64,000 nt of DNA from Patescibacteria group bacterium. Its GTDB lineage: Bacteria; Patescibacteriota; Patescibacteriia; UBA1558. Below, piece by piece: positions 13,979-60,597 of the stretch. The position numbers and the translations under genes were made by a program. The notes beneath the pieces were generated by a model, which was not told the origin of the DNA, did not search any database, and worked only from the letters and a program-made list of their open reading frames with translations. Positions within the stretch are counted from its first letter, which is position 1; each line of letters begins with the position of its first letter. The stretch spans positions 31,092 to 95,091 of the forward strand of contig JADHUR010000002.1 of assembly GCA_016784445.1 (NCBI GenBank), read 5' to 3'.

Positions 13979-15394
13979 ATGTCACTTACAAAAAAAGTAG
14001 CTTACAATACTGCCATGCAGTTTACAGGCAAAATAATAAGCACCATTATTGGTGTTATTATTGTAGGTCTTATAACTAGACATCTTGGTCAATCTGGATA
14101 TGGTCAATATACTACTGTTCTAGCCTTTGTACAGTTCTTTGCTGTTATTGTAGATCTTGGTCTCTACCTTGCCTTGATGCAAGAGATATCAGACCCTGAA
14201 GTAGACGAAAGAAAAGCAGTTAGTAATGTATTCACCATGAAATTAATGAGCGCTTTTGTCTTTTTTGCTCTTGCTCCATTTATTGTATTACTCTTTCCTT
14301 ATGCTCTCATTGTAAAACAAGGCGTGATATTAATGTCGATATCATTTTTCCTATTTACCTTAGCACAGGTTCTTGTAGCAATTTTTCAGAAGAATTTGCG
14401 AATGGATAAAATTATTGGAACAGAAGTTATTGGAAGATTAGCTTTCCTCATAACAGTTATCTTGGTGGTAGTATTTCAAAAGGGTTTACTCTATATAATT
14501 CTAGGTAATGTAGTCTTTAATATAATATATTTTGGTTTAATATTCTTCATGGCCAGAAGTTATACAAAATTTAACTTTGGCTTTGACTTTGTCTATTGGA
14601 AAAAGATTTGGCATAGAGCCTGGCCAATTGCTCTCACTTCATTACTTACTCTTGTTTACTTTAAAGCAGATACATTAATTTTATCTGTATACAGGAGTGA
14701 GGGTGAGGTTGGTATTTATGGGGCAACTTATAAAGTACTGGAAATAATTGGCACTTTCCCTCATATGTTTTTAGGGCTTGTTTTGCCAGTTTTAACAGCA
14801 GCCTATGTTACAAATAATATTGAGAGATTCAAACGTGTGTATCAAAAAGTTTTTGATTTCTTTTTAATGATTTCTATACCTCTTATTGTTGGCACCATGC
14901 TACTTGCAGATAGAGTGATGGTATTGATAGCTGGCGATGAATTTATAGCCTCTGGTGATGTATTAAAAATATTAATCTGGGCAACAGCTATAATATTTTT
15001 TGGTAGTTTATTTGGCTATATTATCTTAGCTATTGATAAACAAAAAAAGATGATACCTTACTATATTATTACAGCAGCTATGGCGCTCATATTATACTTT
15101 GCATTAATCCCTCAATTCTCCTACTGGGCAGCAGCTAGTATAACTGTATTTATTGAATTGCTGTACACCCTATTTGCCTTCTATATTAGCTATAAATACT
15201 CTAAAATAGGTATTAATCTAAGATCCTTTATTAAGATACTATTTGCAAGTTTAATTATGGGACTCTTCATATATGTTCTATTTAGCCTAAACCTAATGCT
15301 ATTAATCTTTCTTGCTTCAATAATTTATATACTAACCCTCTATCTTGTTAAAGGTATAGACAAAAGCATCCTTAATGAATTAAGAGCAAAATAA
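13979..15394 (+). CDS. MOP-superfamily flippase (Wzx/MurJ-like polysaccharide biosynthesis protein)
   Basis: 471 aa with about 12-14 predicted TM helices and the architecture of Wzx-type oligosaccharide flippases. Confidence 0.55.
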   Translation: MSLTKKVAYNTAMQFTGKIISTIIGVIIVGLITRHLGQSGYGQYTTVLAFVQFFAVIVDLGLYLALMQEISDPEVDERKAVSNVFTMKLMSAFVFFALAPFIVLLFPYALIVKQGVILMSISFFLFTLAQVLVAIFQKNLRMDKIIGTEVIGRLAFLITVILVVVFQKGLLYIILGNVVFNIIYFGLIFFMARSYTKFNFGFDFVYWKKIWHRAWPIALTSLLTLVYFKADTLILSVYRSEGEVGIYGATYKVLEIIGTFPHMFLGLVLPVLTAAYVTNNIERFKRVYQKVFDFFLMISIPLIVGTMLLADRVMVLIAGDEFIASGDVLKILIWATAIIFFGSLFGYIILAIDKQKKMIPYYIITAAMALILYFALIPQFSYWAAASITVFIELLYTLFAFYISYKYSKIGINLRSFIKILFASLIMGLFIYVLFSLNLMLLIFLASIIYILTLYLVKGIDKSILNELRAK

Positions 15395-16786
15395 ATGTTA
15401 AATCTTTTACTAATATCAATTTTCTATATCTTCTTTATTGTTTTTGCTTGGCCAAAAATGGAAAGAGGTGTTTATTTAATTATACTTTTATTACCAACAT
15501 ATTTAATACGCTTCCAAATAATTAATATTCCCCTCACATTATTGGAAGGAATGGTTTTATTATTATTCTTAATGTGGTTGATAAAACTATGGCAAAGTAA
15601 AAAATTACACATTGCAATATCTGCTTGGCTTAAAAAAACTTTTAGATCAGAAACTGAAATCGTGGGCACAACAAAGCGTAACTTAATTCCAAAAATTATT
15701 GCTCTACCAATATTTATATTTTTTCTATCCTCAATAGTTGCTCTCACTTTAACTCCTCAAACTATATTAGGGGCAGGAATATGGAAAGCATACTTTCTTG
15801 AACCATTAATGTTTTTAGGGGTAATGCTTTATTATATACGAAAGAATTCTGAAATTAATAAATTGATATACGCCTTTAGCATTTTATCTATAGCAGTTTT
15901 TATTTATGCACTTATTCAAAAATTAACTGGCTGGAATATTCCTACTCTAGATTGGTATTTACCTGAAACAAGAAGAGTAACAACTTTCTTCGGCTATCCG
16001 AATGCAAATGGTCTATTACTAGCACCAATTGGAGCTTTAATTTTTGCAACGCTTTGGATAAAGGAATATACATTTTTAAAGATCTTAAAACTTATTTCAT
16101 TTATTTCTATTATCTTAACAATAATGTGGGCGGGTAGCGAAGGTGCCTTAATTGCATTAAGCCTTGGTGTATTTATAATATTACTTACAAAAAAACACAC
16201 CCGTCTTCTTGCTATTATACTGGCAATTATCTGTTTTGCTGGAATACTATTAACTCCAACACTAAGAACAGTAATGTTTGAGAAATTAACCATATCTGAT
16301 CACTCCGGTCAGATTAGACAAGCACAATGGACTGAAACAATCTCTATGCTAAGAGATAGGCCCATAAACGGAAGCGGGCTCGCTAATTATAAGCAAGCCA
16401 TTGAACCATATCATTCATCTGGTCTTACAATTAACGACAAGTGGCAACCTGTAGAAATATTCCTTTACCCTCATAATATAATTCTAAATTTCTGGGCTGA
16501 GATAGGTATATATGGTCTATTTAGTATTATTTGGCTATTTATTGTCCTAGGGGTGCTTATATACAGGATAAATATTAAGAAAAAATGGCTTCCTAAGTAT
16601 AAAAAAGAATATATTAACCATCTAAGCCTTGGTGTTAGTTCTGCTTTTATAGTAATAATAGTACATGGGCTTGTGGATGTGCCTTACTTTAAAAACGATT
16701 TGAGTATACTTTTCTGGATAATAACAGGTATTACAATAATTCTTTATAACCATACTGTTAATAAAAAGATAGCTGAATTAGAATAG
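15395..16786 (+). CDS. O-antigen ligase/Wzy_C-family membrane protein
   Basis: Polytopic membrane protein with a large external loop carrying an RDRPINGSGLANYKQA motif of the Wzy_C type. Its start codon overlaps the stop codon of the preceding flippase (taaATG). Confidence 0.5.
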   Translation: MLNLLLISIFYIFFIVFAWPKMERGVYLIILLLPTYLIRFQIINIPLTLLEGMVLLLFLMWLIKLWQSKKLHIAISAWLKKTFRSETEIVGTTKRNLIPKIIALPIFIFFLSSIVALTLTPQTILGAGIWKAYFLEPLMFLGVMLYYIRKNSEINKLIYAFSILSIAVFIYALIQKLTGWNIPTLDWYLPETRRVTTFFGYPNANGLLLAPIGALIFATLWIKEYTFLKILKLISFISIILTIMWAGSEGALIALSLGVFIILLTKKHTRLLAIILAIICFAGILLTPTLRTVMFEKLTISDHSGQIRQAQWTETISMLRDRPINGSGLANYKQAIEPYHSSGLTINDKWQPVEIFLYPHNIILNFWAEIGIYGLFSIIWLFIVLGVLIYRINIKKKWLPKYKKEYINHLSLGVSSAFIVIIVHGLVDVPYFKNDLSILFWIITGITIILYNHTVNKKIAELE

Positions 16787-16939: not shown

Positions 16940-17407
16940 CTAAGTTCGTCCTTCTAAATCCTTAATAACTTCTTCTACGTGCTTACTAGGACTTACTTTT
17001 ATGTAATGCTTCAATACTTTTCCTTTTTTATCTATCAAAAATGAATCTCTTTGTATACCCATATACTTCTTACCAAACATGGTTTTATCTTTCCAAACTC
17101 CATATTTTTTAACAACTTCCTTCTCTTCGTCAGAAAGCAGGGGAAAATTTAACCCATGTCTCTCTGTAAATTTTTGATGCGATTCAATACTATCTATAGA
17201 AACTCCTAATACATACACGCCAAGCTTCTTAAACTCATTATTCTTATCCCTAAAACACTTAGCTTCAATTGTACAGCCAGGCGTCATGTCCTTAGGATAA
17301 AAATATAACAAAACATATTTCCCTTTAAAATCACTCAAACTGACTATTTTATTATTTTGATCTTTTAATTTAAAGCTTGGTGCTTTCTTGTTTTCTAGTT
17401 CTAACAT
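16940..17407 (-). CDS. bcp: thiol peroxidase Bcp (peroxiredoxin Q)
   Basis: FYPKDMTPGCT active-site motif of the AhpC/TSA family; 155 aa. Confidence 0.85.
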   Translation of the reverse strand: MLELENKKAPSFKLKDQNNKIVSLSDFKGKYVLLYFYPKDMTPGCTIEAKCFRDKNNEFKKLGVYVLGVSIDSIESHQKFTERHGLNFPLLSDEEKEVVKKYGVWKDKTMFGKKYMGIQRDSFLIDKKGKVLKHYIKVSPSKHVEEVIKDLEGRT

Positions 17408-17524
17408 ATTTTATTTTATAAATAATTATATATACAGTATATAGTATTTGAGTGATTCAGTCTTTTGTTTTACAAACTGCCCATAAAATTGTATAATTTA
17501 CCTAGTTTTAACAAAAAAACAACT

Positions 17525-18922
17525 ATGATATCTAAAACAAAACTCACAATTCTTACTCTAATTCTTATTTCCATGCCATTGATGGGTTTTGGTTGTAAAT
17601 TCTCTCAGAGTTCTGAGGTTGAACAACTATATAAACCTATTGAATTAAATTGGTGGGGAGTTTGGGAAGAAACGGCTGATGTTGCAACTTTAATTAATGC
17701 ATATCAGACAATTCATCCAAATATTAAAGTAAAATATAGAAAATTTCGTTTTGAAGAATATGAAGCTGAATTAACAAAAGCATGGCTTGAACAAAGAGGG
17801 CCAGAAATATTTTCTATACCCTCTACTCTTTTAAGACAGTATGAGAACTTAATAAAACCTATGCCCTCTTCAATGAGAATTCCTTTCCTTGAAATAAAAA
17901 AAGGTCTTAAAGAAGAACAAATTATTACAGTGAAGACAATCTCTGGTTTAACCCCTAAAAAAGTACAAGAACTATTTGCTCCTGTAGTGCATGAACAAGT
18001 TATTATTAATGATGAGGTTTATGGCCTTCCACTCAGTGTTGATACTTTAGCTCTTTATTATAATAGAGATCTATTAAATAGTGCTAAAATTCCATTACCA
18101 GCTACTACTTGGGCCGAACTTGTAGAACATGTAAAGGATCTTACCACCTATGATAATGATGGTAATATATTGCAATCTGGAATTGCTTTAGGTTCGGCTA
18201 ATAATATTCCTCGTGCTAATGATATACTTTCCTTATTAATGATGCAGAACGGTGCACAAATGACTGGTGATAATAATTATGCAACCTTTAATCAAGCTCC
18301 ACCAGACCAGGGAAGATTTTATCCTGGCAAGGATGCTTTAGAGTTTTATGTAGACTTTATTGATCCTACAAAGGAAGTTTATTCATGGACAGAAGATAAA
18401 CCTGATGCATTAGAGATGTTTACTTCAGGAAAACTTGCTTACTTTATTGGTTATGCTTATCAAGCACCAATTATAAAAGCTCAATCACCTAAATTAAATT
18501 TTAATATATCTCCAATGCTACAAACTGTTCCTGATGTACAAGAAGTTAATTTTGCAGATTTCTGGGCATTAACAACCTATTTTGGTGCTGCAGAAGAGAA
18601 GCTTTCACCTGCTTGGGATTTCATTAGATATATTACTACCACTCCTGAACTTACGAAGAAATACCTTGAAGAAAGCAAACAACCAACCGCATTACTGTCA
18701 CTTATAAATGACCAGATACAAACTGAAAGCATGGGCATTTTTGCAGATCAAGTTTTAAATGCACGTGCTTGGTATAGAGGTTATGACGCAGCAGAAGCAG
18801 ATAATGCTATGAGTGATCTTATTTATCAAGCATATCATAATGTTTCAAGCGAACTGGCAACTATAGATATATTGGACTTAACAGTTCGTAGAATTAATCA
18901 AACAATTAGAAAACCTGAATGA
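17525..18922 (+). CDS. lipoprotein resembling an ABC-type extracellular solute-binding protein (family 1)
   Basis: Lipobox MGFGC. An LNWWGVWEE...IKVKY N-terminal region typical of type-1 SBPs. ATG 17525 is preferred over the upstream TTG of the ORF track. The stop overlaps the start of the first pilin-like gene (ATGA). Confidence 0.5.
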   Translation: MISKTKLTILTLILISMPLMGFGCKFSQSSEVEQLYKPIELNWWGVWEETADVATLINAYQTIHPNIKVKYRKFRFEEYEAELTKAWLEQRGPEIFSIPSTLLRQYENLIKPMPSSMRIPFLEIKKGLKEEQIITVKTISGLTPKKVQELFAPVVHEQVIINDEVYGLPLSVDTLALYYNRDLLNSAKIPLPATTWAELVEHVKDLTTYDNDGNILQSGIALGSANNIPRANDILSLLMMQNGAQMTGDNNYATFNQAPPDQGRFYPGKDALEFYVDFIDPTKEVYSWTEDKPDALEMFTSGKLAYFIGYAYQAPIIKAQSPKLNFNISPMLQTVPDVQEVNFADFWALTTYFGAAEEKLSPAWDFIRYITTTPELTKKYLEESKQPTALLSLINDQIQTESMGIFADQVLNARAWYRGYDAAEADNAMSDLIYQAYHNVSSELATIDILDLTVRRINQTIRKPE

Positions 18923-19587
18923 AGAAATTATTATTAGTTTTATTTTTATTACTTTTGCCAGTTCTTGCAAGCGCATCTGTTTTTCAAGACCCAAGTTACT
19001 ATCCTTACGAGGATCAGGTTGAACATCAAAATGACCCTGGCTTTTTTACAAATCAAGAAAACTATGATCAATCATGCATAGCAGATGGAAGCTGTTCTCT
19101 AGATCAAGGGTTTAATACTTTTGTTGTTTTATCTAAATGGGCCATGGGAATACTTGGTAGTATATCTCTACTATTTTTCATAATCGGTGGAATCATGTGG
19201 CTTACTTCCGGCGGAAAACCAGGCCCAATTCAACAAGGTAAAAGTATAATGATTAGCACAGTAATTGGAATAATAATTGTAATGAGTTCATGGTTAATAG
19301 TTCAGGCCGTCCTCACCTCTCTTTCAGATAGAACTCTGCAAGGTTTAGATGGCGGAAGTCAAACACAAGATCTTTGTTCAACTGAATTAGATGAAGGTGA
19401 TTCATGTCGTGGTAATCTTGGAATTTGTCAGGGTGGTATTTGTGTTGAAAAATGTACCGCAACAAATACCAGACCTCCAGGCGGTGGATATGATTGTAGA
19501 GAATTTACAGATTGCGATGAAGATTCTATTATAAGAATGTATTGCTTCGGTTCAAATAGTACTGTTTGTTGTCAGGCGTCTCAATAA
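18919..19587 (+). CDS. VirB2/TrbC-like two-TM pilin-family protein with a Cys-rich C-terminal extension (array member 1)
   Basis: Signal peptide, then a variable N-terminal segment, then the core GGIMWLTSGG-KPGPIQQGK-second TM, then about 90 aa containing 10 Cys. Confidence 0.5.
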   Translation: MKKLLLVLFLLLLPVLASASVFQDPSYYPYEDQVEHQNDPGFFTNQENYDQSCIADGSCSLDQGFNTFVVLSKWAMGILGSISLLFFIIGGIMWLTSGGKPGPIQQGKSIMISTVIGIIIVMSSWLIVQAVLTSLSDRTLQGLDGGSQTQDLCSTELDEGDSCRGNLGICQGGICVEKCTATNTRPPGGGYDCREFTDCDEDSIIRMYCFGSNSTVCCQASQ

Positions 19588-19603: not shown

Positions 19604-19939
19604 ATGAATAAAAAACTTATTAATTTCATAATAGCTTTCTCAATTCTATTAATAATAGTAGCTATTCCAGTCCAAGCAACAAATATTAACAACCCCCTAA
19701 CTGTAGATAGCCCTCAAGAGTTGGTAGGGGTCATTATTAAGGCGCTACTTGGTCTAACAGGTACAATTTCACTTATTTACTTTATTATTGGTGGTTTTAT
19801 GTGGATGACAGCGGGCGGAAATAAAGATAATGTCCAAAAAGGTAAAAATACACTAGTCTGGGCAACCCTAGGACTTGTTATAATATTCTCTGCTTACAGT
19901 ATTCTAACCTTTGTTTTTGACATATTACCAACCAATTAA
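19604..19939 (+). CDS. VirB2/TrbC-like pilin-family protein (array member 2)
   Basis: Signal peptide (AxA cleavage site), TM1 ending in GGFMWMTAGGN, a basic loop KDNVQKGK, then TM2. Confidence 0.5.
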   Translation: MNKKLINFIIAFSILLIIVAIPVQATNINNPLTVDSPQELVGVIIKALLGLTGTISLIYFIIGGFMWMTAGGNKDNVQKGKNTLVWATLGLVIIFSAYSILTFVFDILPTN

Positions 19940-20028
19940 ATTGTTAAAATCAGTAAATTATAGTATAATATTTCTATAATTAGTGTATAATAATTAAAAT
20001 ATCCTTAATAAAGTGTAATTAAAAAACT

Positions 20029-20418
20029 ATGAGTAAAAAGTTAATTTTTCTTTTGGTGCTAGTTTCTTTACTAGCTCTACCAATGATACAAACAGTTCAC
20101 GCATCTCCATCATCTGGAGACGTAAGAGCTTTAACCGGAATAGATGAAGATGTAACTAATCCCGGACTAGGGGAAGAAGACCTAGATGTTGTTGTACAAG
20201 AAATTATCAAAGTTATTCTTGGCTTCTTAGGCTTAATTGCCGTTGTCATTATATTAGTGGGTGGATTCTTCTGGATGACAGCTGGTGGTAATGAAGATAA
20301 TGTTAAAAAAGGTAGAAAGTGGATTATTAATGGTGTTATTGGCCTTCTTATCGTTCTTTCAGCTTATGCTATTGCAGAATTCGCAATTTCAAACGCTGCT
20401 GACGTAACAACACAATAA
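20029..20418 (+). CDS. VirB2/TrbC-like pilin-family protein (array member 3)
   Basis: Signal peptide, acidic N-terminal ectodomain, GGFFWMTAGGNEDNVKKGR core, TM2. Confidence 0.5.
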   Translation: MSKKLIFLLVLVSLLALPMIQTVHASPSSGDVRALTGIDEDVTNPGLGEEDLDVVVQEIIKVILGFLGLIAVVIILVGGFFWMTAGGNEDNVKKGRKWIINGVIGLLIVLSAYAIAEFAISNAADVTTQ

Positions 20419-20470
20419 AAAATAAATAATTATTAACTTGCCCACGAAAGGGGGCTATATAAATAAATAT

Positions 20471-20830
20471 ATGAACAAAAAAGCATTTGCAATCATTATG
20501 GTTGTAGCAATCATGGCAGTTCCTATGCTAGGCATGGCAGCTCCAGATTTAGGCCTTGACGACGCACAAGCAATTGGCTTAGGCGACGCTGGTGTTAAAG
20601 ATATTGTTAACAATATCATTTCTATTATCCTAGGCTTTCTAGGATTAATAGCTGTTATCCTTATCCTAATTGGTGGATTCTTATGGATGACTGCTGGTGG
20701 TAATGAAGATAGAGTTAAGAAAGGTAGACAGTATATTATTAATGGTGTTATCGGATTGATCATCATTTTAGCTGCTTACGCTATCGCTTCTTTCGTAATT
20801 ACAAACCTTGTAGACGCAACTACAACTTAA
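20471..20830 (+). CDS. VirB2/TrbC-like pilin-family protein (array member 4)
   Basis: Close paralog of member 3 (GGFLWMTAGGNEDRVKKGR). ATG 20471 is preferred over the upstream start in the ORF track. Confidence 0.5.
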   Translation: MNKKAFAIIMVVAIMAVPMLGMAAPDLGLDDAQAIGLGDAGVKDIVNNIISIILGFLGLIAVILILIGGFLWMTAGGNEDRVKKGRQYIINGVIGLIIILAAYAIASFVITNLVDATTT

Positions 20831-20892
20831 ATTTATAGTCTAGACTATAGCGGATCATATTTATATGGTCCGCCTAAGCTTAAACTATATAA

Positions 20893-21279
20893 ATGAAAAT
20901 GACTTCAAAAAAATTAAACCTTTTGATTGTGGCTATATTTGTTATAGTCTTTTTTTCTATCCTATTTACAAGCCCTATACTTGCTATTGAAACAGGGTTA
21001 GACGAAACAGCGGGTATGGCTGGGTTTGAAACAGGAGCAACCGCAAAAACTCCTCCACAAATAGTAGCGAGTGTTATTCAAATAGCTCTAGGTTTTGTAG
21101 GGACACTATTCTTAATCTTTATCATTGTGTCTGGCTTTCAATGGATGACTGCTGGTGGCAATGCTACAACAATTGAAACGGCAAAGAAAAGAATAATAAA
21201 TGCAACTATTGGCCTTGTTATAATACTTGCTGCATATGCAATTACTCAATTCGTTCTAATAGAGATTGTAAACTTATAA
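20893..21279 (+). CDS. VirB2/TrbC-like pilin-family protein (array member 5)
   Basis: Core SGFQWMTAGGNATTIETAKKRIINA; shares blocks that are identical at nucleotide level with members 6-8. Confidence 0.5.
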   Translation: MKMTSKKLNLLIVAIFVIVFFSILFTSPILAIETGLDETAGMAGFETGATAKTPPQIVASVIQIALGFVGTLFLIFIIVSGFQWMTAGGNATTIETAKKRIINATIGLVIILAAYAITQFVLIEIVNL

Positions 21280-21282
21280 TAT

Positions 21283-21711
21283 ATGAAAAAATATTTACTC
21301 TTAATTACTCTTTGTTCTCTAATTCTTTTCTCTTCAGTATTAGTTACTAAAGCTGCATTATTAAACCAAGATGGCCTAACGGCAATAGGTGATCAGACAA
21401 TGGAATTTGGAGCTGATGCTGGCTACAATCCTGATGATATGACTCCATTACCAGTAAGAATAGGGAATATAATACAAATAGCTCTAGGCTTCGTAGGGAC
21501 ACTCTTTCTAATTCTAATCATTGTATCTGGTTTTCAATGGATGACTGCTGGTGGCAATGCTACAACTATAGAAACAGCAAAAAAAAGAATAATAAATGCT
21601 ATTATAGGCTTAGCTATTGTATTGGCCGCCTACAGTATAACCTGGTTTGTCACAGAACAAGTACTAGGTGTTACTGGAGTTATAGAATTACAAGAAGAAG
21701 TATTACAATAA
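21283..21711 (+). CDS. VirB2/TrbC-like pilin-family protein (array member 6)
   Basis: Same core; a 59-nt run identical to member 7; the N-terminal ectodomain is variable. Confidence 0.5.
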   Translation: MKKYLLLITLCSLILFSSVLVTKAALLNQDGLTAIGDQTMEFGADAGYNPDDMTPLPVRIGNIIQIALGFVGTLFLILIIVSGFQWMTAGGNATTIETAKKRIINAIIGLAIVLAAYSITWFVTEQVLGVTGVIELQEEVLQ

Positions 21712-21715
21712 ATAT

Positions 21716-22123
21716 ATGAATAAACACTTATTTTACACAGCAGCCCTACTAACAATCATCGTGCTATCCTCTCTCTTTGTACTAAACCCTTCTGTACAAG
21801 CATCTAATGTACAAGACGGCCTTAGACAAGTTGGCGGTGAAGCATATTACAATGACGGCACTATGGAGCCTGCAGAAGCAAACCCAACCAATATTGTGGG
21901 TAGTATTATAGAAATTGCTTTAGGTTTTTTAGGAATAATTTTCGTAATACTAATTATAGTATCAGGTTATCAATGGATGACTGCTGGTGGCAATGCTACA
22001 ACTATAGAAACAGCAAAAAAAAGAATAATCAATTCTGTAGTCGGACTACTTATTGTTCTAACAGCCTTTACAATAACTCTAGAAGTATTAAATAGAACAG
22101 GCGATATATTAACAAATAATTAA
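21716..22123 (+). CDS. VirB2/TrbC-like pilin-family protein (array member 7)
   Basis: Core SGYQWMTAGGNATTIETAKKRIINS. Confidence 0.5.
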   Translation: MNKHLFYTAALLTIIVLSSLFVLNPSVQASNVQDGLRQVGGEAYYNDGTMEPAEANPTNIVGSIIEIALGFLGIIFVILIIVSGYQWMTAGGNATTIETAKKRIINSVVGLLIVLTAFTITLEVLNRTGDILTNN

Positions 22124-22127
22124 ATCG

Positions 22128-22541
22128 ATGTTAAAAACAAGAAACAAGCAATTCTTCCTAAAAATATTCTTATTTTGTTTTTTGTTTATTATAATTTCTG
22201 CTCCTGCTTTACATGCCTCAGATGAAGTAATAGATAAAAATTTTGTTAAAGTCCTTAATGTTCAGAAGAATGCAATAGGAAACAATGATGAAACATCTGT
22301 ATCAACTATTATTATAAATATTCTTAAAATTGCATTAAGCTTTTTAGGAATACTCTTTGTTATTTTAATTATATGGTCAGGAGCTCAGTGGATGACCGCT
22401 GGTGGCAATGCAACAACAATTGAAACGGCAAAGAAAAGAATAATAAATTCTGTAATAGGCCTGGTAATAGTTTTAGGAGCCTTTGCTATAACAGAGTTTG
22501 TTCTAGACAATTTAATATCTGCTGTTGAAACAGAACAATAA
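22128..22541 (+). CDS. VirB2/TrbC-like pilin-family protein (array member 8)
   Basis: Core SGAQWMTAGGNATTIETAKKRIINS; a 36-nt block identical to member 5. Confidence 0.5.
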   Translation: MLKTRNKQFFLKIFLFCFLFIIISAPALHASDEVIDKNFVKVLNVQKNAIGNNDETSVSTIIINILKIALSFLGILFVILIIWSGAQWMTAGGNATTIETAKKRIINSVIGLVIVLGAFAITEFVLDNLISAVETEQ

Positions 22542-22542
22542 T

Positions 22543-22926
22543 ATGAAATATAAATTTATAACAATAAGCGCCCTATTAATATTTGTTTTTTTATTTAGCA
22601 TACAAGCTCAGGCAAGTGGTCTAAGTGATTTGGTTAATAGTGAGCTCGACACCGTTCAAGAGGGTATTACTGGCTCGACAACAGCAGCAAGTTTAGAAAA
22701 TATTATTATAAATATTGTTCATACGGTTTTAGGTTTTCTTGGATTAATATTTGTTGTTCTAATGATATGGTCAGGCTATCAATGGATGACATCTGGAGGA
22801 AATACAACCGCAATAGAAACTGCTAAGAAAAGAATCATAAATGCAGTAATTGGACTTGCTATTGTACTTGCAGCTTACTCCATAACTGAATTTTTAGTTA
22901 TACAAGTACTAAACGCTGTAAATTAA
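22543..22926 (+). CDS. VirB2/TrbC-like pilin-family protein (array member 9)
   Basis: Core SGYQWMTSGGNTTAIETAKKRIINA. ATG 22543 is preferred, which avoids overlap with member 8. Confidence 0.5.
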   Translation: MKYKFITISALLIFVFLFSIQAQASGLSDLVNSELDTVQEGITGSTTAASLENIIINIVHTVLGFLGLIFVVLMIWSGYQWMTSGGNTTAIETAKKRIINAVIGLAIVLAAYSITEFLVIQVLNAVN

Positions 22927-22971
22927 ATACAATAAAAACAGCTATATAGCTGTTTTTTTATTTACCCCGTT

Positions 22972-24552
22972 TTACTGTACAAAATAGACCCAGGCGTCAT
23001 TATCTTCGTAGACAAGGTCAAAGTATATATTGCCCTCTAACTGCTCATTTAGGGCAGTTTTTTGCTTATTAACGAGTATATAGTCTGCGTCTAGCTTTCC
23101 TTTTAATAGCGCATAGACATTCTTACTACTTTTACCGTTCATAATATCAATATAGTCGTCTTTAGATTGATAATATTTATTACTTATGATGTTTTCGTCA
23201 AGCCCCCACCAATATCTATTATTATCATTATAATAAAATAAAGGTGCCCAATCTTCATAATCACTATTAATAATTAATGCATTATCTGGTGTGTGATAAT
23301 ATAACCACTCTGCTACAGGTTGCATATAATTTAAGCTATATTTATCTTTAATATCATTTAATGCATAATAAGTTGCCATTGGAAAAGACAGAATCACTAT
23401 TAATAAAATAGTTTTTATAGATAATCTTATTGCTTTAGATGAAAACAAATTAATCAGTGCGCTATTGAGACCTCTTCCCTTAAAACCATCTCTTAATATC
23501 AATGAAGATGTTAGAGATAATAGAATTAACAATAATCCCCCTCCCCATTGCACAAAAATATATACAATCGTAAACACCACTGTTAAAACAAATAAATTAA
23601 CGGTTAGTTTGGATAGTCTACTTTTAGAGAATAGTGCCGTTAAAACTCCAGACAAAAAAACCATGAAAATAATTATTGCTCCAGATAATAATTTGCTCAA
23701 ACTAAGTAATGCTCCTCCAGAATCATTATGCGTAGTTCTGTTTACAATTTGCTCTCCATAGAAAGATAAGCTCTCGGGCCAATAAGGATGAGCAATTAGT
23801 CCTATAATAACTCCCGCTAAACAAAATATTAATATTAACCACTTTTTTCTTCCCACCCCACTACGTAATCCTAACTTTCTCATCACCCAATCTTTTAGAT
23901 TTCCAAATCTTGTACCGAAATTATCTAAACTGTACTTGTGATACACAAATTCTATAATAAGCCACACCATAGCAATGAGTAAAAGAAAAACAAATTGGCC
24001 CGTTAACAAGACAATAAGCACACTTAATATTCCTAGTTGCCAATATCTATAATTCACAATCAAGTCCAGGCCTATTAATAAAGATAATAATGATATAGCT
24101 TCCGGTCCAGAAAAACCTATCTCATTTAAAAAGAATATAGAGCTAAATAACAAAAGTACAAATAATTCAGGCCACACCCCTTCGTGTTTTTCTAGCCAAT
24201 AATATACATAGGTTGCCAAAAAACCAATAAATAATGCACCAAATAATTTAACAACCAAAAAGGTAGGTAAAAATCCTATAAATAAACTAAGAAAGAAATG
24301 GTATAGCCAATTATTATCTGCAAATCCATCACTATAATTTGTTGACTCTAACCAATTAAAATTGTCTAATTTTAGCGAATTTTCGGATAATTCTATCATT
24401 TTAGATTGATAGAAGAAATCTGTTGTAAGAAAATTAGGAGTCGCCTGTATCCAGGAGAATAATATAAAGACAATTAAAAAAACCAGTAGGTAATTCAACC
24501 TATGATCTTTAATAAAATGTAATAGTTTTTGCCAATTGTTCTGTACTAGCAT
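22972..24552 (-). CDS. polytopic integral membrane protein, possibly a GT-C-fold glycosyltransferase (ArnT/PMT-like architecture)
   Basis: About 10 N-terminal TM helices plus a roughly 140-aa C-terminal soluble domain. Convergent with the pilin-like array. An extended -10 element (TGaTATAAT) lies 6 nt upstream of the ATG. Confidence 0.3.
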   Translation of the reverse strand: MLVQNNWQKLLHFIKDHRLNYLLVFLIVFILFSWIQATPNFLTTDFFYQSKMIELSENSLKLDNFNWLESTNYSDGFADNNWLYHFFLSLFIGFLPTFLVVKLFGALFIGFLATYVYYWLEKHEGVWPELFVLLLFSSIFFLNEIGFSGPEAISLLSLLIGLDLIVNYRYWQLGILSVLIVLLTGQFVFLLLIAMVWLIIEFVYHKYSLDNFGTRFGNLKDWVMRKLGLRSGVGRKKWLILIFCLAGVIIGLIAHPYWPESLSFYGEQIVNRTTHNDSGGALLSLSKLLSGAIIIFMVFLSGVLTALFSKSRLSKLTVNLFVLTVVFTIVYIFVQWGGGLLLILLSLTSSLILRDGFKGRGLNSALINLFSSKAIRLSIKTILLIVILSFPMATYYALNDIKDKYSLNYMQPVAEWLYYHTPDNALIINSDYEDWAPLFYYNDNNRYWWGLDENIISNKYYQSKDDYIDIMNGKSSKNVYALLKGKLDADYILVNKQKTALNEQLEGNIYFDLVYEDNDAWVYFVQ

Positions 24553-31428: not shown

Positions 31429-32529
31429 TTATTGCCGGATCGGCATTACTATATACAAGTATCCCTCTTTATTATCCGGTACAAAAACCCCTGGAGCACC
31501 TTGATTGGAGGTTTTTATTATCACTTGTTCTGATTGTAAGTTATTTAGGCCATCAAGTAAATAGCGATAATTAAAGACTATTTCCACCTCTTCACCCTTA
31601 ATTTCGGCCCCTATATTGGTTATGTTCTCTCCTAATCCACTGTTTGTTGACAGGATAACCACTTCATTCTTTGAAGGTATAATAGTCATTTTTATATCAT
31701 TAATCCCTGTCTTACAGAACAATGCAGCACCTTTAATCGCCTTGATTAAATCCTCTGCCTTTACTCTAGTTATTGTCTTTTCGTCGCTGGGTATAATTTG
31801 TTCATAATCTGGGTAATTTCCGTCAATTAAACGAGATGTTAGAACTATATTACTTGAGCTAAACGCAACTTGATTCTCATTTAAATATAAACTAATATTC
31901 TTTTCTGTGCTGTTTGCTAATATTCTACCAAGCTCCTGAAGTGTCTTAAGTGGAATAATAATCTTCTGATCAATGCTACCATCTACCTTTATTTTCTTTT
32001 CTGCTAATCTATAACTGTCTGTTGCAGCAACTGTTAAGTCTTGACCTTTAAAGTTAAAAAATACTCCACTAATTTCTGGCCTATTATCGTCTAGCGTTGC
32101 AGCAAATACTGTTTGACTCAAAACTTCTTTAAAAGTTTGCATATCTATATTAACTTTTTTCTCTGAACTAACATCTGGTATTAGAGGGTAGTCCTCTGAA
32201 AGCATTCCTTTAATTTGAGTTTGAGAATTTTTACAACTTACATTTAGTCCATCCGTTTCTAAATCTATATCTACATTCTCATTCGGTAATAATGAAACAA
32301 AGTCAGAAAATAAACGAGCCGGAACAGTATATGAACCTTCTATTTCTATTTTTCCTCTCACCGTAACTTTGATACCAATTTCTAAGTTGGTTGTAGATAA
32401 TGTAATTATTCCATCTTTAGCATCTATTAAAACATTATTCAAGATTGGAAGGTTTGCATTATGAGAAGCTAAATGATTTACAATGTTTAAACCATTATTT
32501 AAATTTTCTCTTGTGCATATGAATTTCAT
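31429..32529 (-). CDS. dnaN: DNA polymerase III beta sliding clamp
   Basis: 366 aa with a three-domain clamp pattern; the N-terminal MKFICTRENL...NLPILNNVLI is typical of DnaN; immediately downstream of dnaA. Confidence 0.9.
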   Translation of the reverse strand: MKFICTRENLNNGLNIVNHLASHNANLPILNNVLIDAKDGIITLSTTNLEIGIKVTVRGKIEIEGSYTVPARLFSDFVSLLPNENVDIDLETDGLNVSCKNSQTQIKGMLSEDYPLIPDVSSEKKVNIDMQTFKEVLSQTVFAATLDDNRPEISGVFFNFKGQDLTVAATDSYRLAEKKIKVDGSIDQKIIIPLKTLQELGRILANSTEKNISLYLNENQVAFSSSNIVLTSRLIDGNYPDYEQIIPSDEKTITRVKAEDLIKAIKGAALFCKTGINDIKMTIIPSKNEVVILSTNSGLGENITNIGAEIKGEEVEIVFNYRYLLDGLNNLQSEQVIIKTSNQGAPGVFVPDNKEGYLYIVMPIRQ

Positions 32530-32786
32530 TATTATTATATTAATTTATTATATTTTATATAGTTATAGTAGTAAGGGCTGTTGATATGTTGATAAGCTAC
32601 TATATAGCTGTATGGGGAAGGGCTTTTATGATGGTCCTTTGAGTTGATAAACAGGGAGGAAAAATTTAATGATTTGTTAGTAACTTTTATTTTATCTTTA
32701 TCTGTGTGTATAAGTTTATTTTTATAAACAGTTATGTGTGATTTATCAACGAGGCTAGGGTTTTAATAAACAGACTTATTAACAAT
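32530..32786. promoter_or_regulatory. candidate oriC segment: DnaA-box cluster plus an AT-rich unwinding element in the dnaA-dnaN spacer
   Basis: At least five 9-mers match TTATCAACA / TGTTGATAA with zero or one mismatch, for example at 32579-32587, 32587-32595, 32643-32651 and 32748-32756. A near-pure A/T stretch lies at 32530-32570. Confidence 0.5.
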
Positions 32787-34172
32787 TTATGATGCGTATA
32801 GTTGTTGTCTTATTAATTCTATATCACTTTTTGTCTTGCTGTCATTCTTGATTTGGCCAGTTATTTTATTACATGCGTGTATTGCTGTGGTGTGATCTCT
32901 GCCTCCGAGCTCCTGCCCAATAGAAGGATATGAGCTTTTTAATTCTTCTCTCATAAGCCACATAGTAATCTGTCTTGGGAAGACTAATTCCTTTCTTCTG
33001 CTACTACCCATTAGATCTGCCATTGATATGTCGTAGAAATCAGCCACCTTTGTAGCTATCTTTTTTGGAGTTAAACCACTTTTCTTTGCACTAAGAGATA
33101 AAGAGCCTAATACACTTTTAACTGATTCTAATGTAATTTCTGAGTTGTTTAGTTGTTGATAGGCAATTATTCTGTTTAAAGCACCCTCCAATTCTCTAAT
33201 ATTGCTTTGTATGTTTTCAGAGACAAAAGCAAGTACATCTGGAGAAAGGGTAATTCCCTTTTCGTGGCACTTAGCCTCTAAAATAGCATATCTTGTTTCC
33301 ATATCAGGAGCACCAATATCTGCAATCATTCCCCATTCAAAACGAGAGATTAATCTCTGCTCAACTTCAGCAATAGCTTTTGGAGGCCTATCGGAAGTCA
33401 TAACAATCTGCTTATTCTTCTGATGCAATTCATTAAAGGTGTGAAAGAACTCTTCTTGAGTTTGTTCCTTGCCAGCTATAAATTGAATATCATCTATTAA
33501 TAATACATCAACTGTACGATAATATTTTTTCAACTCATCAGTAGTTCCCTTTTTAATTGAGTTAATAAAATCATTAACAAACTTTTCTGTATTTAAATAA
33601 ACAATTCTAATTTTCGGATCCTTAGCAAGAAGAGAGTTTCCAATAGCTTGTAATAAATGAGTTTTACCCAGTCCAACTCCTCCATATAAGAAGAGGGGGT
33701 TATATACTTCTCCTGGTTTATTAACCACTGCATTAGCAGCAGCTGTCGCTAAGTCATTTCCTTTTCCAACAATGAAAGAGTCAAACGTATATTTAGGATT
33801 TAAATTAAAATTATTTTGTGCTGGCTTAGGAGCCTCATTAGTGGAAGATTTCGATTCATCAGCTTGATCATCTTTAGTTGAATTTGCTACATGATTTTTT
33901 ATTTGATCAGGATTCTGATCTTTATTAGAAGCTACTTTATATATAACAGAATCAATTTTACCTTGGCTGCTTTTATTTAAAGCAGTTAGGATGTGATCAT
34001 GATACTTATTTTCAAGCCAAGCTTTTGTAAAGGCATTTGGCACACCAACCACTATATTACTTTCATCAACAGAGTGAATAAAAGTATTTTTAAACCAAGT
34101 AGTAAAGTTAGCTTTAGAAATTGTCAGTTCAAGTTCGCCTAGTACAGCGTCCCACAATTGATTTGTTAACAT
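32787..34172 (-). CDS. dnaA: chromosomal replication initiator DnaA
   Basis: AAA+ Walker A motif GGVGLGKTHL, the sensor and box VII regions, and a C-terminal DNA-binding helix-turn-helix. Confidence 0.95.
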   Translation of the reverse strand: MLTNQLWDAVLGELELTISKANFTTWFKNTFIHSVDESNIVVGVPNAFTKAWLENKYHDHILTALNKSSQGKIDSVIYKVASNKDQNPDQIKNHVANSTKDDQADESKSSTNEAPKPAQNNFNLNPKYTFDSFIVGKGNDLATAAANAVVNKPGEVYNPLFLYGGVGLGKTHLLQAIGNSLLAKDPKIRIVYLNTEKFVNDFINSIKKGTTDELKKYYRTVDVLLIDDIQFIAGKEQTQEEFFHTFNELHQKNKQIVMTSDRPPKAIAEVEQRLISRFEWGMIADIGAPDMETRYAILEAKCHEKGITLSPDVLAFVSENIQSNIRELEGALNRIIAYQQLNNSEITLESVKSVLGSLSLSAKKSGLTPKKIATKVADFYDISMADLMGSSRRKELVFPRQITMWLMREELKSSYPSIGQELGGRDHTTAIHACNKITGQIKNDSKTKSDIELIRQQLYAS

Positions 34173-53633: not shown

Positions 53634-55550
53634 ATGTATTTAGAGGATATTAAATTAACTGTATTTATATTATTGGTGGGATTATTTGTGATAGTCTTTC
53701 TTTCAAGTATTCAGGTCGTAGTAGCTCAAGTAAATTCCTCAATAATATTTACAGAGATCATGTATGATTTAGAGGGAGCAGATGATGGTTATGAATGGGT
53801 AGAAATATATAATGGTAGTGATGTAGATTATGTAATAGATAGTAGTTGGAGGTTCTATGATGGGAGTAATCACGTAGTGACCGTTACTCAAGGCGATGGA
53901 ATTCTATCTGCAGGTGAAGTTATTATTATTGCAGATAATACAGAGAATTATATTTTAACCCATCCAGACTATACTGAGGATCTATTAGATTCAGTTGTTA
54001 AATTAAATAATACAGGAGAAACCTTAAAATTGAGTTTGGATGGTGGAGAAACCTGGATTATAGAAGTAGAGTATTCAAGTTCTGTAGGAGCTGCAGGAGA
54101 TGGCAATACGTTAGAATATAATGGAGACGCTTGGCAGCAAAGTTTAATTGTTGGGGGTTCGCCGGGAGCCTATTTGGCAAATGATGAAGAAATAGAATGT
54201 TGTGATTGTAACTCATGTAATGTTATAGACATTATTCCAGACAATAATGAAGAAGCAGTAGAGATTATTGAAGAAGAAATTGAAGAAATAGTTGAAGAAG
54301 AGATTACAGATAATGGCAGCACTAGCATAACAAATCAGGAGGTTATAAAGGTGGTATACAGTGAAGTAATTATTATAAATGAGTTAATTCCAGATCCAGC
54401 GGGTAGCGATGAAGAGGGCGAATATATTGAATTGTTTAATAAAGGATCGGAATCTGTTGACATGGTGGGCTGGTACTTAATTGATGCTAGTGGCAAGAAA
54501 TTTGAATTGATAGGTAGTATTAATGGGCAGGAGTATTTAGTTATTTATAGAACAGAATCTAAAATAACATTAAATAATAGTGCAGGTGATAGTATTAGAT
54601 TATTGAATCCCATAGATGAAGTTGTATCGGAAGTTATGTACAGTGAATCGGTTGGTGGAGAAAGCTATTCGTATATAGATTCTGAATGGGTATGGACAGA
54701 TCAATTAACCCCAGGAGAGATTAATATTAGGGCTGTTGCTATAGAGATTGCTGAAGATGAGCCTGAAGAAGATGTCGATATAGAAATAAAGGAAGAAACA
54801 ATGGAATTACAATTGATATCTGAAATAAAGAATTTAGATAAGGATACAGAGGTATATGTGCGAGGAATTGTTACAGCACTCCCTGGACAATTTGCAGATA
54901 CATACTTTTATATATCAGAAATAGATTTTGATGGAGAAATAAACCTAAGTACAGGTATTCAAATTTATTCTTCTAAAAAATATTTTCCAGATTTAGAAAT
55001 TGGAGATATTATTAAAGTTTTTGGAAAATTATCAGAGACCAGTGGAGAGAAAAGAATCAAGATATTAGCAGAGGACGATATTCAATTTATTGAATCATAT
55101 AGCCTTCCTCAACCAGAAGAAGTTTTAACAGGAGAGATCTCTGATGATTATGAAGGGGGTCTTGTCTATGTGCAGGCTGATCTTATAGATAAGAAATCTA
55201 CCTCATGGTATTTAGATGACGATTCGGGAGAAATACGTGTATATATAAGCTCTAAGACAGGCATTGAAAAACCAATCGTAGAATTGGGACAACAAGTATT
55301 AGTGATAGGTATTATTAGTGAAACTAAGAGTGGCTTCCGTTTATTACCTAGATTCGATGAGGATATTGTTGTAGAAAAACTCGTTTTAGAGGAATTAGAA
55401 CCGGAGATAAATGTAATAAATAAATCTACAGATAAGTATATTAATTCAGAAGAGGGAACAAATGAAGATAGGGGTGATTTTGTTGGGTATGGCTTAGGAG
55501 TTGTTAGTCTTACAATGGTTTCCTGGGTATTAAAGTTAAAGTTAGTATAA
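53634..55550 (+). CDS. membrane-anchored surface protein with two lamin-tail-domain (LTD)-like modules
   Basis: IIFTEIMYDLEGADDGYEWVEIYNGSDVD and IIINELIPDPAGSDEEGEYIELFNKGSESVDMVGWYL match the LTD pattern; acidic EEIEEIVEEE linker; C-terminal TM helix. Confidence 0.55.
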   Translation: MYLEDIKLTVFILLVGLFVIVFLSSIQVVVAQVNSSIIFTEIMYDLEGADDGYEWVEIYNGSDVDYVIDSSWRFYDGSNHVVTVTQGDGILSAGEVIIIADNTENYILTHPDYTEDLLDSVVKLNNTGETLKLSLDGGETWIIEVEYSSSVGAAGDGNTLEYNGDAWQQSLIVGGSPGAYLANDEEIECCDCNSCNVIDIIPDNNEEAVEIIEEEIEEIVEEEITDNGSTSITNQEVIKVVYSEVIIINELIPDPAGSDEEGEYIELFNKGSESVDMVGWYLIDASGKKFELIGSINGQEYLVIYRTESKITLNNSAGDSIRLLNPIDEVVSEVMYSESVGGESYSYIDSEWVWTDQLTPGEINIRAVAIEIAEDEPEEDVDIEIKEETMELQLISEIKNLDKDTEVYVRGIVTALPGQFADTYFYISEIDFDGEINLSTGIQIYSSKKYFPDLEIGDIIKVFGKLSETSGEKRIKILAEDDIQFIESYSLPQPEEVLTGEISDDYEGGLVYVQADLIDKKSTSWYLDDDSGEIRVYISSKTGIEKPIVELGQQVLVIGIISETKSGFRLLPRFDEDIVVEKLVLEELEPEINVINKSTDKYINSEEGTNEDRGDFVGYGLGVVSLTMVSWVLKLKLV

Positions 55551-55989: not shown

Positions 55990-57018
55990 TTAGTCTTCTC
56001 CAATCCAAACACCTGATACGCCGGTAGTCACCAGCTCGTCTTCGAAGGTGAATGCGTATGGTTGATTTCTTTCGCTTCCCAGGATAATAAGCTCGCCCGA
56101 TTCTCCAGACGTGGCGTAGTTATCTCCGCGGAGAATACCACTCAAGTTGAGCGATTCCGACCCTTGAATTAGGCTATCCAAAGCAACCGAGTTCTCATTT
56201 GAGAATACTATCCTAACTCGCAGAGGTGCGTTCCCACTGTTTGATATTAATACAGTGTCTAGGTCAGCGGAGCTTAAGCCGTAATAACTTTGAAAATCAA
56301 AGTTGTAGCCCGGCATGTTGAACGTGTTGATATTAAGAGGGTATTCTATTAAAGATTGTCCAGATATCTCCAGATTAATAATAGCGCCCATCTTGGTTCC
56401 AGCAACGTCATATTCATCAGTAACCGTAACAGTGTCACCGCCTAGGGTATAGCTGTAGGACAGGGTAAGGGTGTCGGTAAATTCACCAATCTCCATTTCA
56501 AGTAGACTACCAATTCCAGCCAAAGGTGTTACGTGTTCTTTCACGATATTTACAATTGGCAGGGCGGTTACTTCGGTTCCCTGTTCAGAGGCCTGTATGA
56601 GACTGATGGCACCAGGAAAGATCTCAAGATTGTTGGCGGTAAAATCGATATCAAAGATATCTTGATTACCAACGTTCATAATTACGTATTGTAGAGTTCT
56701 CGTGTTAAGAACTTCACCGTAGTCAATCATTGCTGCCGCTATTTTGGCTAAACTGCCTTCTGTTAAATCCTCAAGTCGAATCGCAAGGCGACCCATTTTT
56801 TTCAGATTTTCCATAGCAGCTTCGCGCGGAAGATACTCTTTCCCGTCTGTTCCGGTAAATTTCTTTGCCAGAGCTTCGTTGCTCAACGGAACAAGGATTA
56901 ACTTGCTCATTGTTTCAGGCGGATCATCGTTTGGACCGGTGGGTCCGTTGTCGCAGCCGGTCATCACCATGACTACCAGCAATACGGTTGTCAGTAAAAA
57001 ACTCATCTTTTTTCTCAT
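55990..57018 (-). CDS. hypothetical lipoprotein with strongly elevated G+C, probably horizontally acquired
   Basis: Lipobox VMTGC. Composition is visibly more G+C-rich than its flanks. Its own long GC-rich terminator hairpin lies at 55931-55985. Confidence 0.5.
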   Translation of the reverse strand: MRKKMSFLLTTVLLVVMVMTGCDNGPTGPNDDPPETMSKLILVPLSNEALAKKFTGTDGKEYLPREAAMENLKKMGRLAIRLEDLTEGSLAKIAAAMIDYGEVLNTRTLQYVIMNVGNQDIFDIDFTANNLEIFPGAISLIQASEQGTEVTALPIVNIVKEHVTPLAGIGSLLEMEIGEFTDTLTLSYSYTLGGDTVTVTDEYDVAGTKMGAIINLEISGQSLIEYPLNINTFNMPGYNFDFQSYYGLSSADLDTVLISNSGNAPLRVRIVFSNENSVALDSLIQGSESLNLSGILRGDNYATSGESGELIILGSERNQPYAFTFEDELVTTGVSGVWIGED

Positions 57019-57378: not shown

Positions 57379-57471
57379 CCTAAATTGATCATTAATAATT
57401 GCATAGGTAACATAACGAGCATTTGTAATAAAAATAAATGTGCTACTTTTAGTAACCTAGCCAAAATATTT

Positions 57472-60597
<3,126 letters not shown>

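Follow-up and report, generated by a model that had tools for sequence, protein, structure and literature searches.

A VirB2/TrbC-like pilin with a ten-cysteine C-terminal domain heads a pilin gene array in a Patescibacteria group bacterium

A pilin core fused to a rare ten-cysteine domain

We analysed a 64,000-nucleotide stretch of the genome of a Patescibacteria group bacterium of the UBA1558 lineage (GenBank assembly GCA_016784445.1, contig JADHUR010000002.1, positions 31,092 to 95,091 of the forward strand; hereafter the window, to whose first letter all coordinates refer). The subject of this work is a gene of the window encoding a 222-residue protein, the Cys-rich pilin, in which a two-helix pilin core of the VirB2/TrbC-like kind is joined to a C-terminal domain with ten cysteines. 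It is very probably a VirB2-like membrane protein bearing an exported, disulfide-rich ectodomain, and we lean towards the view that it is a minor pilin with a specialised task, present at low stoichiometry and mediating contact or recognition, either as a tip or cap or as a surface anchor. An earlier note on this DNA, made from the letters alone, had described a pilin-like core with two transmembrane (TM) helices fused to a Cys-rich C-terminal domain; this fusion is real and is conserved in homologues. The gene and its parts are the following.

18919..19587, + strand: gene of the 222-residue VirB2/TrbC-like pilin with a Cys-rich C-terminal ectodomain (PF18895 match, open reading frame, alignment)
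18919..18975, + strand: type I signal peptide, MKKLLLVLFLLLLPVLASA followed by S after the cleavage site (Ala19, position -1, invariant in the family)
19069..19122, + strand: N-ectodomain motif SCIADGSCSLDQGFNTF with the pair C53-x5-C59 (alignment)
19129..19311, + strand: two-helix pilin core consisting of TM1, a short basic loop TSGGKPGPIQQGK and TM2 (PF18895, hydropathy, charge)
19318..19374, + strand: linker after TM2, SLSDRTLQGLDGGSQTQDL (low model confidence, column identity 0.62)
19375..19572, + strand: ten-Cys domain, C-x9-C-x6-C-x4-C-x3-C-x13-C-x5-C-x9-C-x7-CC (small beta-rich model)

The protein contains 12 cysteines, two in the N-ectodomain (residues 53 and 59) and ten within the last 70 residues (153, 163, 170, 175, 179, 193, 199, 209, 217 and 218), a count that bears out the one given in the earlier note; the two Cys motifs quoted there, CRGNLGICQGGICVEKC and MYCFGSNSTVCCQ, are both found in the tail. 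Cysteine makes up 11% of the tail (residues 134-222), against a background of 0.54% in the window's 35 open reading frames of at least 150 residues. This enrichment is far beyond chance: at the background rate 89 residues should contain about 0.5 Cys, and ten are observed. The tail could also have arisen as a frame artefact or by chimeric assembly. The reading frame is uninterrupted, however, an identical protein is encoded on four independent contigs (annotated as 'hypothetical protein ISR92_01355, Patescibacteria group bacterium'), and 14 diverged homologues from independent metagenomes keep the tail cysteines invariant. The probability that the tail is a chance Cys-rich stretch or an artefact of frame or assembly is accordingly negligible.

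A search with the full-length protein returned 12 homologues with 56-69% identity over nearly the full length, and all 12 cysteines are invariant in their alignment. When 1.84 billion cluster representatives were searched exhaustively with the tail alone (phmmer), three hits emerged, all of them fusions to PF18895-type pilins, namely the representative of this family and two distant proteins, P0014 and P0015, in both of which the domain is again C-terminal. All ten tail cysteines are invariant across a 15-sequence tail alignment that includes these two distant relatives. The search of other genomes for the Cys pattern, which the earlier note had proposed, was carried out with a back-translated motif: the domain was present in 2 of 185,579 species-representative genomes, both from Ca. 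Komeilibacteria and always fused to a pilin, and also on five metagenome contigs. Word-index searches with the tail alone or with a tail profile returned nothing, known family members included, so that their null results carry little weight and the exhaustive phmmer search is the informative one. Mean column identity was highest in the SCIADGSCSLDQGFNTF motif (0.91), followed by TM2 (0.86), TM1 (0.83) and the loop (0.72), with the Cys domain (0.66) and the linker at the lower end. Since the tail occurs solely in a few pilin fusions and its cysteines are invariant, the ten-Cys domain is, by these alignments and searches, rare, lineage-restricted, never free-standing and under clear constraint.

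The pilin assignment rests on the core. Residues 71-131 match the Pfam family PF18895 (T4SS_pilin, for type IV secretion system) with 42.4 bits against a cut-off of 26.6 (E 7.5e-11). All eight paralogs encoded downstream match the same family, homologues of the Cys-rich pilin likewise bear a precomputed PF18895 annotation, and in an alignment of the core with the eight paralogs the G, W, T, GG and G columns are invariant. The TrbC/VirB2 family PF04956 did not match the Cys-rich pilin at E up to 1; its cut-off of 27.9 bits is passed by the paralogs at 19604-19939 (33.8 bits) and 22525-22926 (37.3 bits), the other paralogs remaining sub-threshold. NCBIfam gave only sub-threshold matches, to a pilin-like family of mycoplasma integrative and conjugative elements (ICE). 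We also considered and rejected an identity as a pilin of a type IV pilus: the N-terminus, MKKLLLVLFLLLLPVLASA followed by S, has the form of a type I signal, N_methyl did not match, and two more TM helices follow. Because it carries a type I signal peptide and no prepilin-peptidase site, the protein is a pilin of the VirB2/TrbC-like, type IV secretion system (T4SS) kind and not a type IV pilus pilin. Thus the earlier description of the core as pilin-like was right as to pilin membership, with the qualification that the family is VirB2/TrbC-like.

Topology, disulfides and fold of the cysteine-rich tail

Three hydrophobic segments are evident in the Cys-rich pilin: the signal peptide (residues 1-19), TM1 (about 69-95) and TM2 (about 111-133). 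With three such segments the C-terminus ends up outside in either case, with the signal peptide removed or retained. We compared segment composition in 52 array proteins, taken from the window together with six related loci. Their TM1-TM2 loops (1032 residues) contain no cysteine at all and have a net charge of +0.08 per residue, whereas the N-ectodomains contain 38 Cys at -0.09 per residue and the C-tails 98 Cys at -0.05 per residue. The number of cysteines is even in 19 of the 19 ectodomain segments that have any, and Cys-rich modules stand on the N- or C-terminal side and never in the loop. As judged from these sequences, the pattern is what one would expect if a hairpin with a cytoplasmic loop bore disulfide-bonded modules on the extracytoplasmic side. 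The topology put forward in the earlier note, with both termini outside, is therefore upheld by the signal peptide with its invariant Ala at -1, the basic Cys-free loop, the acidic ectodomains and the even-numbered terminal cysteines.

The same observations bear on an inverted topology, in which the tail would form a cytoplasmic Zn or Fe-S cluster. Ten invariant cysteines could in principle ligate metals. The signal peptide followed by two hydrophobic segments, the basic loop between acidic ends and the even Cys counts nevertheless place the tail outside, the alignments contain neither CxxC/CxxH motifs nor a conserved His, and in a distant array, L010, Cys-rich modules also occur N-terminally, directly after signal peptides. 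We regard an inverted topology as very improbable.

An MdbA-like thiol-disulfide oxidoreductase, often encoded next to VKOR, is enriched in bacteria of the Candidate Phyla Radiation (CPR) (PMC6744442). This makes extracellular oxidative folding plausible, and by analogy the disulfides of the Cys-rich pilin would probably be made by oxidoreductases of the MdbA/VKOR type. No Dsb or VKOR gene was found among the scanned open reading frames of the window. The neighbouring peroxiredoxin (16940-17407, - strand) was discarded as a candidate catalyst, being a cytoplasmic thiol peroxidase of the Bcp/PrxQ type without a signal peptide.

An AlphaFold2 (AF2) model of the full-length protein was mediocre (predicted local distance difference test, pLDDT, 68); it consists of a long helical hairpin followed by a disordered linker (residues 137-148, pLDDT <50), and from this model the linker after TM2 is presumably flexible. 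The structure prediction of the tail that the earlier note had called for gave a confidently folded domain. Modelled alone with the 15-sequence alignment, the tail reached pLDDT 88.5 and a predicted TM-score (pTM) of 0.72, with all five models at or above 85.8. In tail numbering, where residue 1 is residue 146 of the protein, the model contains a short helix (7-10), a beta-hairpin (23-26/29-32) and two strands (47-50 and 70-73).

The fold could not be assigned to a known class. Foldseek found no match to the tail model in the PDB and BFVD at E up to 0.001, and the best small-protein neighbours, a tick carboxypeptidase inhibitor (E 6.4, probability 0.08) and a sea-anemone toxin (E 8.4), are insignificant. 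A profile search of PDB sequences with the tail alignment returned nothing, and no EGF or defensin model of Pfam matched the tail family at E up to 10. The only recurrent Pfam match at E up to 10 was PF11410, a knottin-type antifungal peptide family, which four of the 15 members matched below threshold (18.2 bits against a cut-off of 22, E 0.0024; best member E 7.4e-4) and over the first half only, the window protein not being among them. The tail does resemble small disulfide-rich folds, for it is small, dense in Cys and contains a beta-hairpin; the C-x6-C-x4-C-x3-C arrangement of its first half yields the PF11410 matches, and its second half ends in a CC doublet as does the beta-defensin framework (C...C...C...C...CC). 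In beta-defensins, however, the cysteines are spaced roughly x6, x4, x9 and x6, as against x13, x5, x9 and x7 in the tail. With no match above a curated threshold and no significant structural match, an identity as an EGF, defensin, knottin or WAP domain is unsupported, and the resemblance to EGF-like, defensin-like or disulfide-knot folds drawn in the earlier note was not sustained.

The distant relative P0014 has an additional C-terminal module with six cysteines beyond the ten-Cys domain. The second half of the domain and this module can be aligned in register (Y-x-C-x-E-x3-C...C...VCC; hhalign E 0.064, 35% identity over 31 columns; BLAST E 6.1), a weak match that hints at an organisation in two subdomains of four and six cysteines. 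The tail of a 236-residue member of the L010 array was not detectably related.

These properties of linker and tail raise another reading, in which the tail is a pro-domain or a released Cys-rich peptide (a toxin, antimicrobial or signal) that is cut off at the linker after membrane insertion and released towards the host, leaving an ordinary pilin. The TrbC/VirB2 pilins of RP4 and Ti are known to be trimmed at the C-terminus, the linker is flexible and moderately conserved (S-I-S-x-[RK]-[TS]-L), the first half of the tail has its weak likeness to PF11410, and the nearest structures in Foldseek, themselves weak matches, are small secreted inhibitors and toxins rich in disulfides. All of these PF11410 and Foldseek matches are below significance, however. 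Furthermore, no gene for a TraF-like maturation peptidase was found in the operon or the window, the plain paralogs show no C-terminal pro-peptides in the core alignment, and the domain never occurs free-standing among the 1.84 billion representatives. The equally conserved Cys loop of the N-ectodomain suggests instead that both ectodomains cooperate on a membrane-bound protein. Release of the tail as a peptide is thus quite improbable.

The array, its operon and its relatives

The Cys-rich pilin gene lies between a binding-lipoprotein gene and a series of plain pilin genes. The features of this region and of the related arrays that matter below are these.

17469..17497, + strand: sigma-70-like promoter match TTTACA-17-TATAAT, 11/12, the best in the region and just upstream of the likely ATG at 17525
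17525..18922, + strand: sugar-type solute-binding lipoprotein gene (SBP_bac_8/SBP_bac_1, Pfam E 1e-22; lipobox-like ...PLMGFGC; weakly GanS/MalE-like)
19604..22926, + strand: eight plain PF18895 paralogs of 111-142 residues, with 0-1 Cys each, all of it in the signal peptide
22934..22957, no strand assigned: terminator-like hairpin, palindromic and bidirectional, separating the last pilin gene from the convergent gene of the membrane protein
22972..24552, - strand: 526-residue polytopic membrane protein, convergent at the array end, without a Pfam or NCBIfam match
L001:11092-11562, L002:11234-11710 and L004:10981-11481: last array members of three Komeilibacteria relatives, with a 4-Cys tail (sub-threshold WAP, Lustrin and Dickkopf-like matches)
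L010:4357-12735 (GCA_964597575.1): distant array of 12 PF18895 genes, six of whose members have Cys-rich ectodomains

The gene order in close relatives is a binding lipoprotein, the Cys-rich pilin, six to eight plain pilins and a convergent polytopic membrane protein, wherever the available sequence suffices to see it (nine contexts: the window, L001, L002, L004, L007, L008, L012, L013 and L014). The promoter candidate and the terminator-like hairpin fit a single operon of about 5.4 kb, although promoter-like sites in the region are no more numerous than in shuffled sequence and the candidate is therefore only suggestive. The convergent polytopic protein (494-533 residues) stands at the array end in the window, L001, L002, L004 and L007, and may be an unrecognised assembly or modification factor of the system.

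Within these nine contexts the Cys-rich pilin gene is first in the array without exception. The members of the array are positional orthologs: member k best matches member k of another array, with 48-85% identity as compared with 31-71% between paralogs. Since positional orthology is generally above paralog identity, the paralogs are individually maintained and not rapidly diversifying. Five consecutive paralogs (20893-22926) share a near-identical loop, QWMTAGGNATTIETAKKRIIN, and a 182-nucleotide core repeat with 68-81% DNA identity, while their N-ectodomains are divergent; this shared core could reflect strong constraint or gene conversion, with the exposed part diversifying. Members 3 and 4 (20029-20830) are a duplicated pair with 58% identity that has two counterparts in L004 and L007 and one in L001 and L002, so that array copy number varies between close lineages.

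The end of the binding-lipoprotein gene, with its stop codon, and the ATG at the start of the Cys-rich pilin gene share four nucleotides (ATGA) in all eight contexts that include the upstream gene (the window, L001, L002, L004, L008, L012, L013 and L014). Such an overlap suggests translational coupling and a functional partnership. It also speaks for a different role, in which the protein is no fibre subunit at all and is instead a membrane anchor or docking partner of the co-translated lipoprotein, its Cys-rich ectodomain and conserved N-terminal Cys loop binding the sugar-type binding protein and the two together forming a surface unit that senses or captures host-derived glycans. An ABC permease or ATPase that could otherwise partner the binding protein was not found near its gene, T4SS machinery was not found in the window, and in L010 the SBP_bac_1/8 gene again lies between two Cys-decorated members, after array member 1. 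Against this, the core clearly belongs to a pilin family and its gene leads a series of eight plain paralogs within one operon, we know of no case in which a binding protein docks onto a VirB2-like protein, and gene adjacency is no proof of physical interaction. Docking would in any case be compatible with display on a fibre. We consider a docking partner outside any fibre unlikely, though less so than a released peptide.

The earlier note had spoken of a single modified subunit beside a family of plain ones, and this does not hold generally. The last array member of L001, L002 and L004 also carries a cysteine tail, in this case with four cysteines (C-x5-C-x5/6-C-x6/9-C, for example ECSSDSDCPSGFHCWTNGLDESRCVIN), so that these arrays are bracketed by Cys-tailed members; the 4-Cys tail is missing from the last members of the window (22525-22926) and of L007. 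In L010 the six decorated members comprise three with N-terminal modules (4, 18 and 6 Cys) and three with C-terminal ones (16, 10 and 4 Cys), and the homologue of the Cys-rich pilin, P0015, is the sixth of the 12 pilin genes. The earlier note had asked whether the Cys-rich member always comes first; it does in the nine close contexts and does not in this distant array. Type IV pilus-like genes (N_methyl, faint PilX_N) lie directly upstream of the L010 array.

Just upstream of the operon in the window (13979-16786, + strand), and likewise in L001, L002 and L012, are genes for a Wzx-type flippase (weak best NCBIfam match: O-glycosylation flippase) and a Wzy_C/O-antigen-ligase-like protein. Since some members of the Wzy_C family are pilin O-oligosaccharyltransferases, glycosylation of the pilins is possible.

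The window as a whole is core chromosome, with rpoB/rpoC, ftsK, recA, a class A penicillin-binding protein (PBP), dnaN/dnaA, yidC, a proton-pumping pyrophosphatase (H+-PPase) and 23S/5S rRNA. The pilin array is followed, about 9-10 kb downstream, by the dnaN and dnaA genes (31429-34172, - strand), which matches the published origin-proximal tendency of Patescibacterial T4SS-related genes. The 23S rRNA match (57470-60892) spans 3131 nucleotides as compared with 2925 model positions, and an insertion of about 200 nucleotides is possible; it is followed by 5S rRNA, there is no 16S rRNA in the window, and an unannotated open reading frame of 342 residues (55990-57018, - strand) lies just upstream of the 23S rRNA. 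A 638-residue protein (53634-55550, + strand) adjoining ssb has Lamin Tail Domain repeats as well as an OB-fold nucleic-acid-binding domain and may be a surface DNA-binding or uptake protein.

Relation to known systems and proposed role

In fibres of the VirB2/TraA type, the hairpin loop faces the lumen, the termini point outward, and F-pilin tolerates display at its C-terminus. On these grounds we propose the following course of events, the first steps from features of the sequence and the later ones by analogy. After Sec-dependent insertion and cleavage of the signal peptide, the protein would form a helical hairpin in the membrane with its short basic loop in the cytoplasm. Both ends would be outside: an acidic N-ectodomain with a small C53-C59 disulfide loop, and a compact C-terminal domain of about 70 residues, predicted to be held together by five disulfides, on a flexible linker of about 20 residues. 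Given the outward-pointing termini of VirB2-type fibres, whatever structure the array builds would bear the Cys-rich domain on its outside, or else the domain would be exposed on the cell surface. Placement at a tip or cap would fill the VirB5/adhesin role that these systems lack; alternatively, the protein might act at the surface as an anchor, in concert with the binding protein.

The gene is present in single copy, its order is conserved and its start overlaps the stop of the binding-lipoprotein gene, for which reasons a low-stoichiometry contact module is the most likely role. A function as the bulk fibre subunit is unlikely. A tip adhesin in the strict sense is a doubtful proposition. The parallel with tip or adhesin minor pilins offered in the earlier note is plausible as far as it goes, yet it carries over reasoning that belongs to type IV and chaperone-usher pili, and the tip protein of VirB2-like systems is VirB5.

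Several points weigh against the minor-pilin role. A 70-residue domain would be sterically demanding if carried by every subunit, and the minor status is something that we infer. No ligand or binding function could be read from the fold of the tail by the Foldseek, Pfam and PDB profile searches. A profile search of PDB sequences with the array alignment returned nothing, and so none of the solved VirB2, TraA or CedA pilins, and for the full-length model, itself of low confidence, the sole Foldseek match was the Aeropyrum conjugation pilus 8dfu (E 7.9, TMt 0.44). VirB4, VirB6 and VirB3 were not found among the Pfam-scanned open reading frames of at least 120 residues in the window; those left unscanned are all too small for VirB4. 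The L010 array, with P0015 sixth of 12 and half of its members decorated, suits the idea of variable decoration of the surface more than that of a unique tip subunit. Finally, we know of no pilus built of PF18895 proteins that has been visualised.

The closest known counterparts are VirB2-like arrays of other Patescibacteria. Such arrays of 2-11 pilin genes number 441 in 383 assemblies, and one of them is essential in Ca. Southlakia epibionticum; no adhesin has been found in Patescibacteria, and VirB5 homologues occur only in a rare system of the Gram-negative type (PMC12102498, PMC10633639, PMC12857230). Cys-rich or ectodomain-bearing members are not mentioned in these papers, nor did a full-text literature search for Cys-rich VirB2 pilins in Patescibacteria find a match. 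The six-pilin T4SS cluster of Southlakia ML1 and the 'Sec-secreted array' of TM7x resemble the window array in Pfam family, in the signal peptide followed by two TM helices, in consisting of tandem divergent paralogs, in their chromosomal site near the origin and in their monoderm host lineage. The window array differs in having neither virB4 nor other T4SS genes within 64 kb, in being headed by a binding-lipoprotein gene and in the ten-Cys C-terminal ectodomain of its first member. A published survey of Patescibacteria placed pilin genes near virB4 in 1135 of 1948 assemblies.

That VirB5 is confined to the rare Gram-negative-type system leaves the tip role open. In the current model, as reviewed, VirB5 nucleates the fibre and ends up at its tip. 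The likeness of the Cys-rich pilin to VirB5/TrwJ lies only in the proposed role, that of a low-copy nucleator or cap mediating contact. There is no kinship in sequence or structure (Pfam, NCBIfam and PDB searches gave no VirB5/TraC/TrwJ similarity), and VirB5 is a soluble helical protein and not a VirB2-type hairpin with a grafted domain.

Other systems share single elements of the design. Modular type IV pilins, for example PilB and PilC of Streptococcus sanguinis, carry a functional module grafted on the pilin C-terminus. They resemble the Cys-rich pilin in that a minor subunit, accompanied by plain major ones, unites a polymerisable pilin and a grafted globular ectodomain, but they belong to another superfamily and machine, with a class III signal (G|FxxxE) and a single N-terminal helix. 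The Trw T4SS of Bartonella, with tandem variants of VirB2 and VirB5, likewise has several sequence-variable tandem paralogs that have been proposed to diversify surface binding. The Trw variants, however, differ by substitutions and not by grafted disulfide-rich domains, and the window paralogs are stable positional orthologs in contrast to fast-diversifying copies. RP4 TrbC, Ti VirB2 and F-pilin share the two-helix core and an extracytoplasmic C-terminus that tolerates extra residues on the outer face of the fibre. The pro-pilin extensions of RP4 TrbC and Ti VirB2 are Cys-free, measure 4-27 residues and are removed before cyclisation, whereas the extension of the Cys-rich pilin is a conserved folded domain of 90 residues. 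A 'novel CPR pilus' described in bioRxiv (PamA/PamB) was set aside as a relative, being an unrelated donor-strand system with Ig folds.

What is new here is a Cys-rich domain family without detectable relatives; the pilin array itself was already known. Together with the decorated members of L010, the Cys-rich pilin indicates that both termini of VirB2-type pilins can bear grafted modules, a design so far described for type IV pilins only. VirB2-like arrays are among the most abundant gene sets specific to Patescibacteria and are essential for epibiotic growth in the sole species that has been tested genetically (PMC12102498, PMC10633639, PMC12857230). A conserved, outward-facing, disulfide-stabilised domain on one defined member would offer a concrete handle on the structure that such arrays build and on their recognition of a host, since it could be expressed alone, used as an epitope for localisation and tested for binding to host envelopes or glycans. 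More speculatively, in monoderm Patescibacteria disulfide-rich modules on the outward termini of selected pilin paralogs might mediate host contact by the T4SS-associated array, with the ten-Cys tail as a new fold setting host or ligand specificity. If this tentative idea is true, specificity may be set jointly with the co-translated sugar-binding lipoprotein, and the number and type of decorated paralogs (one or two in Komeilibacteria, six of 12 in L010) would tune host range.

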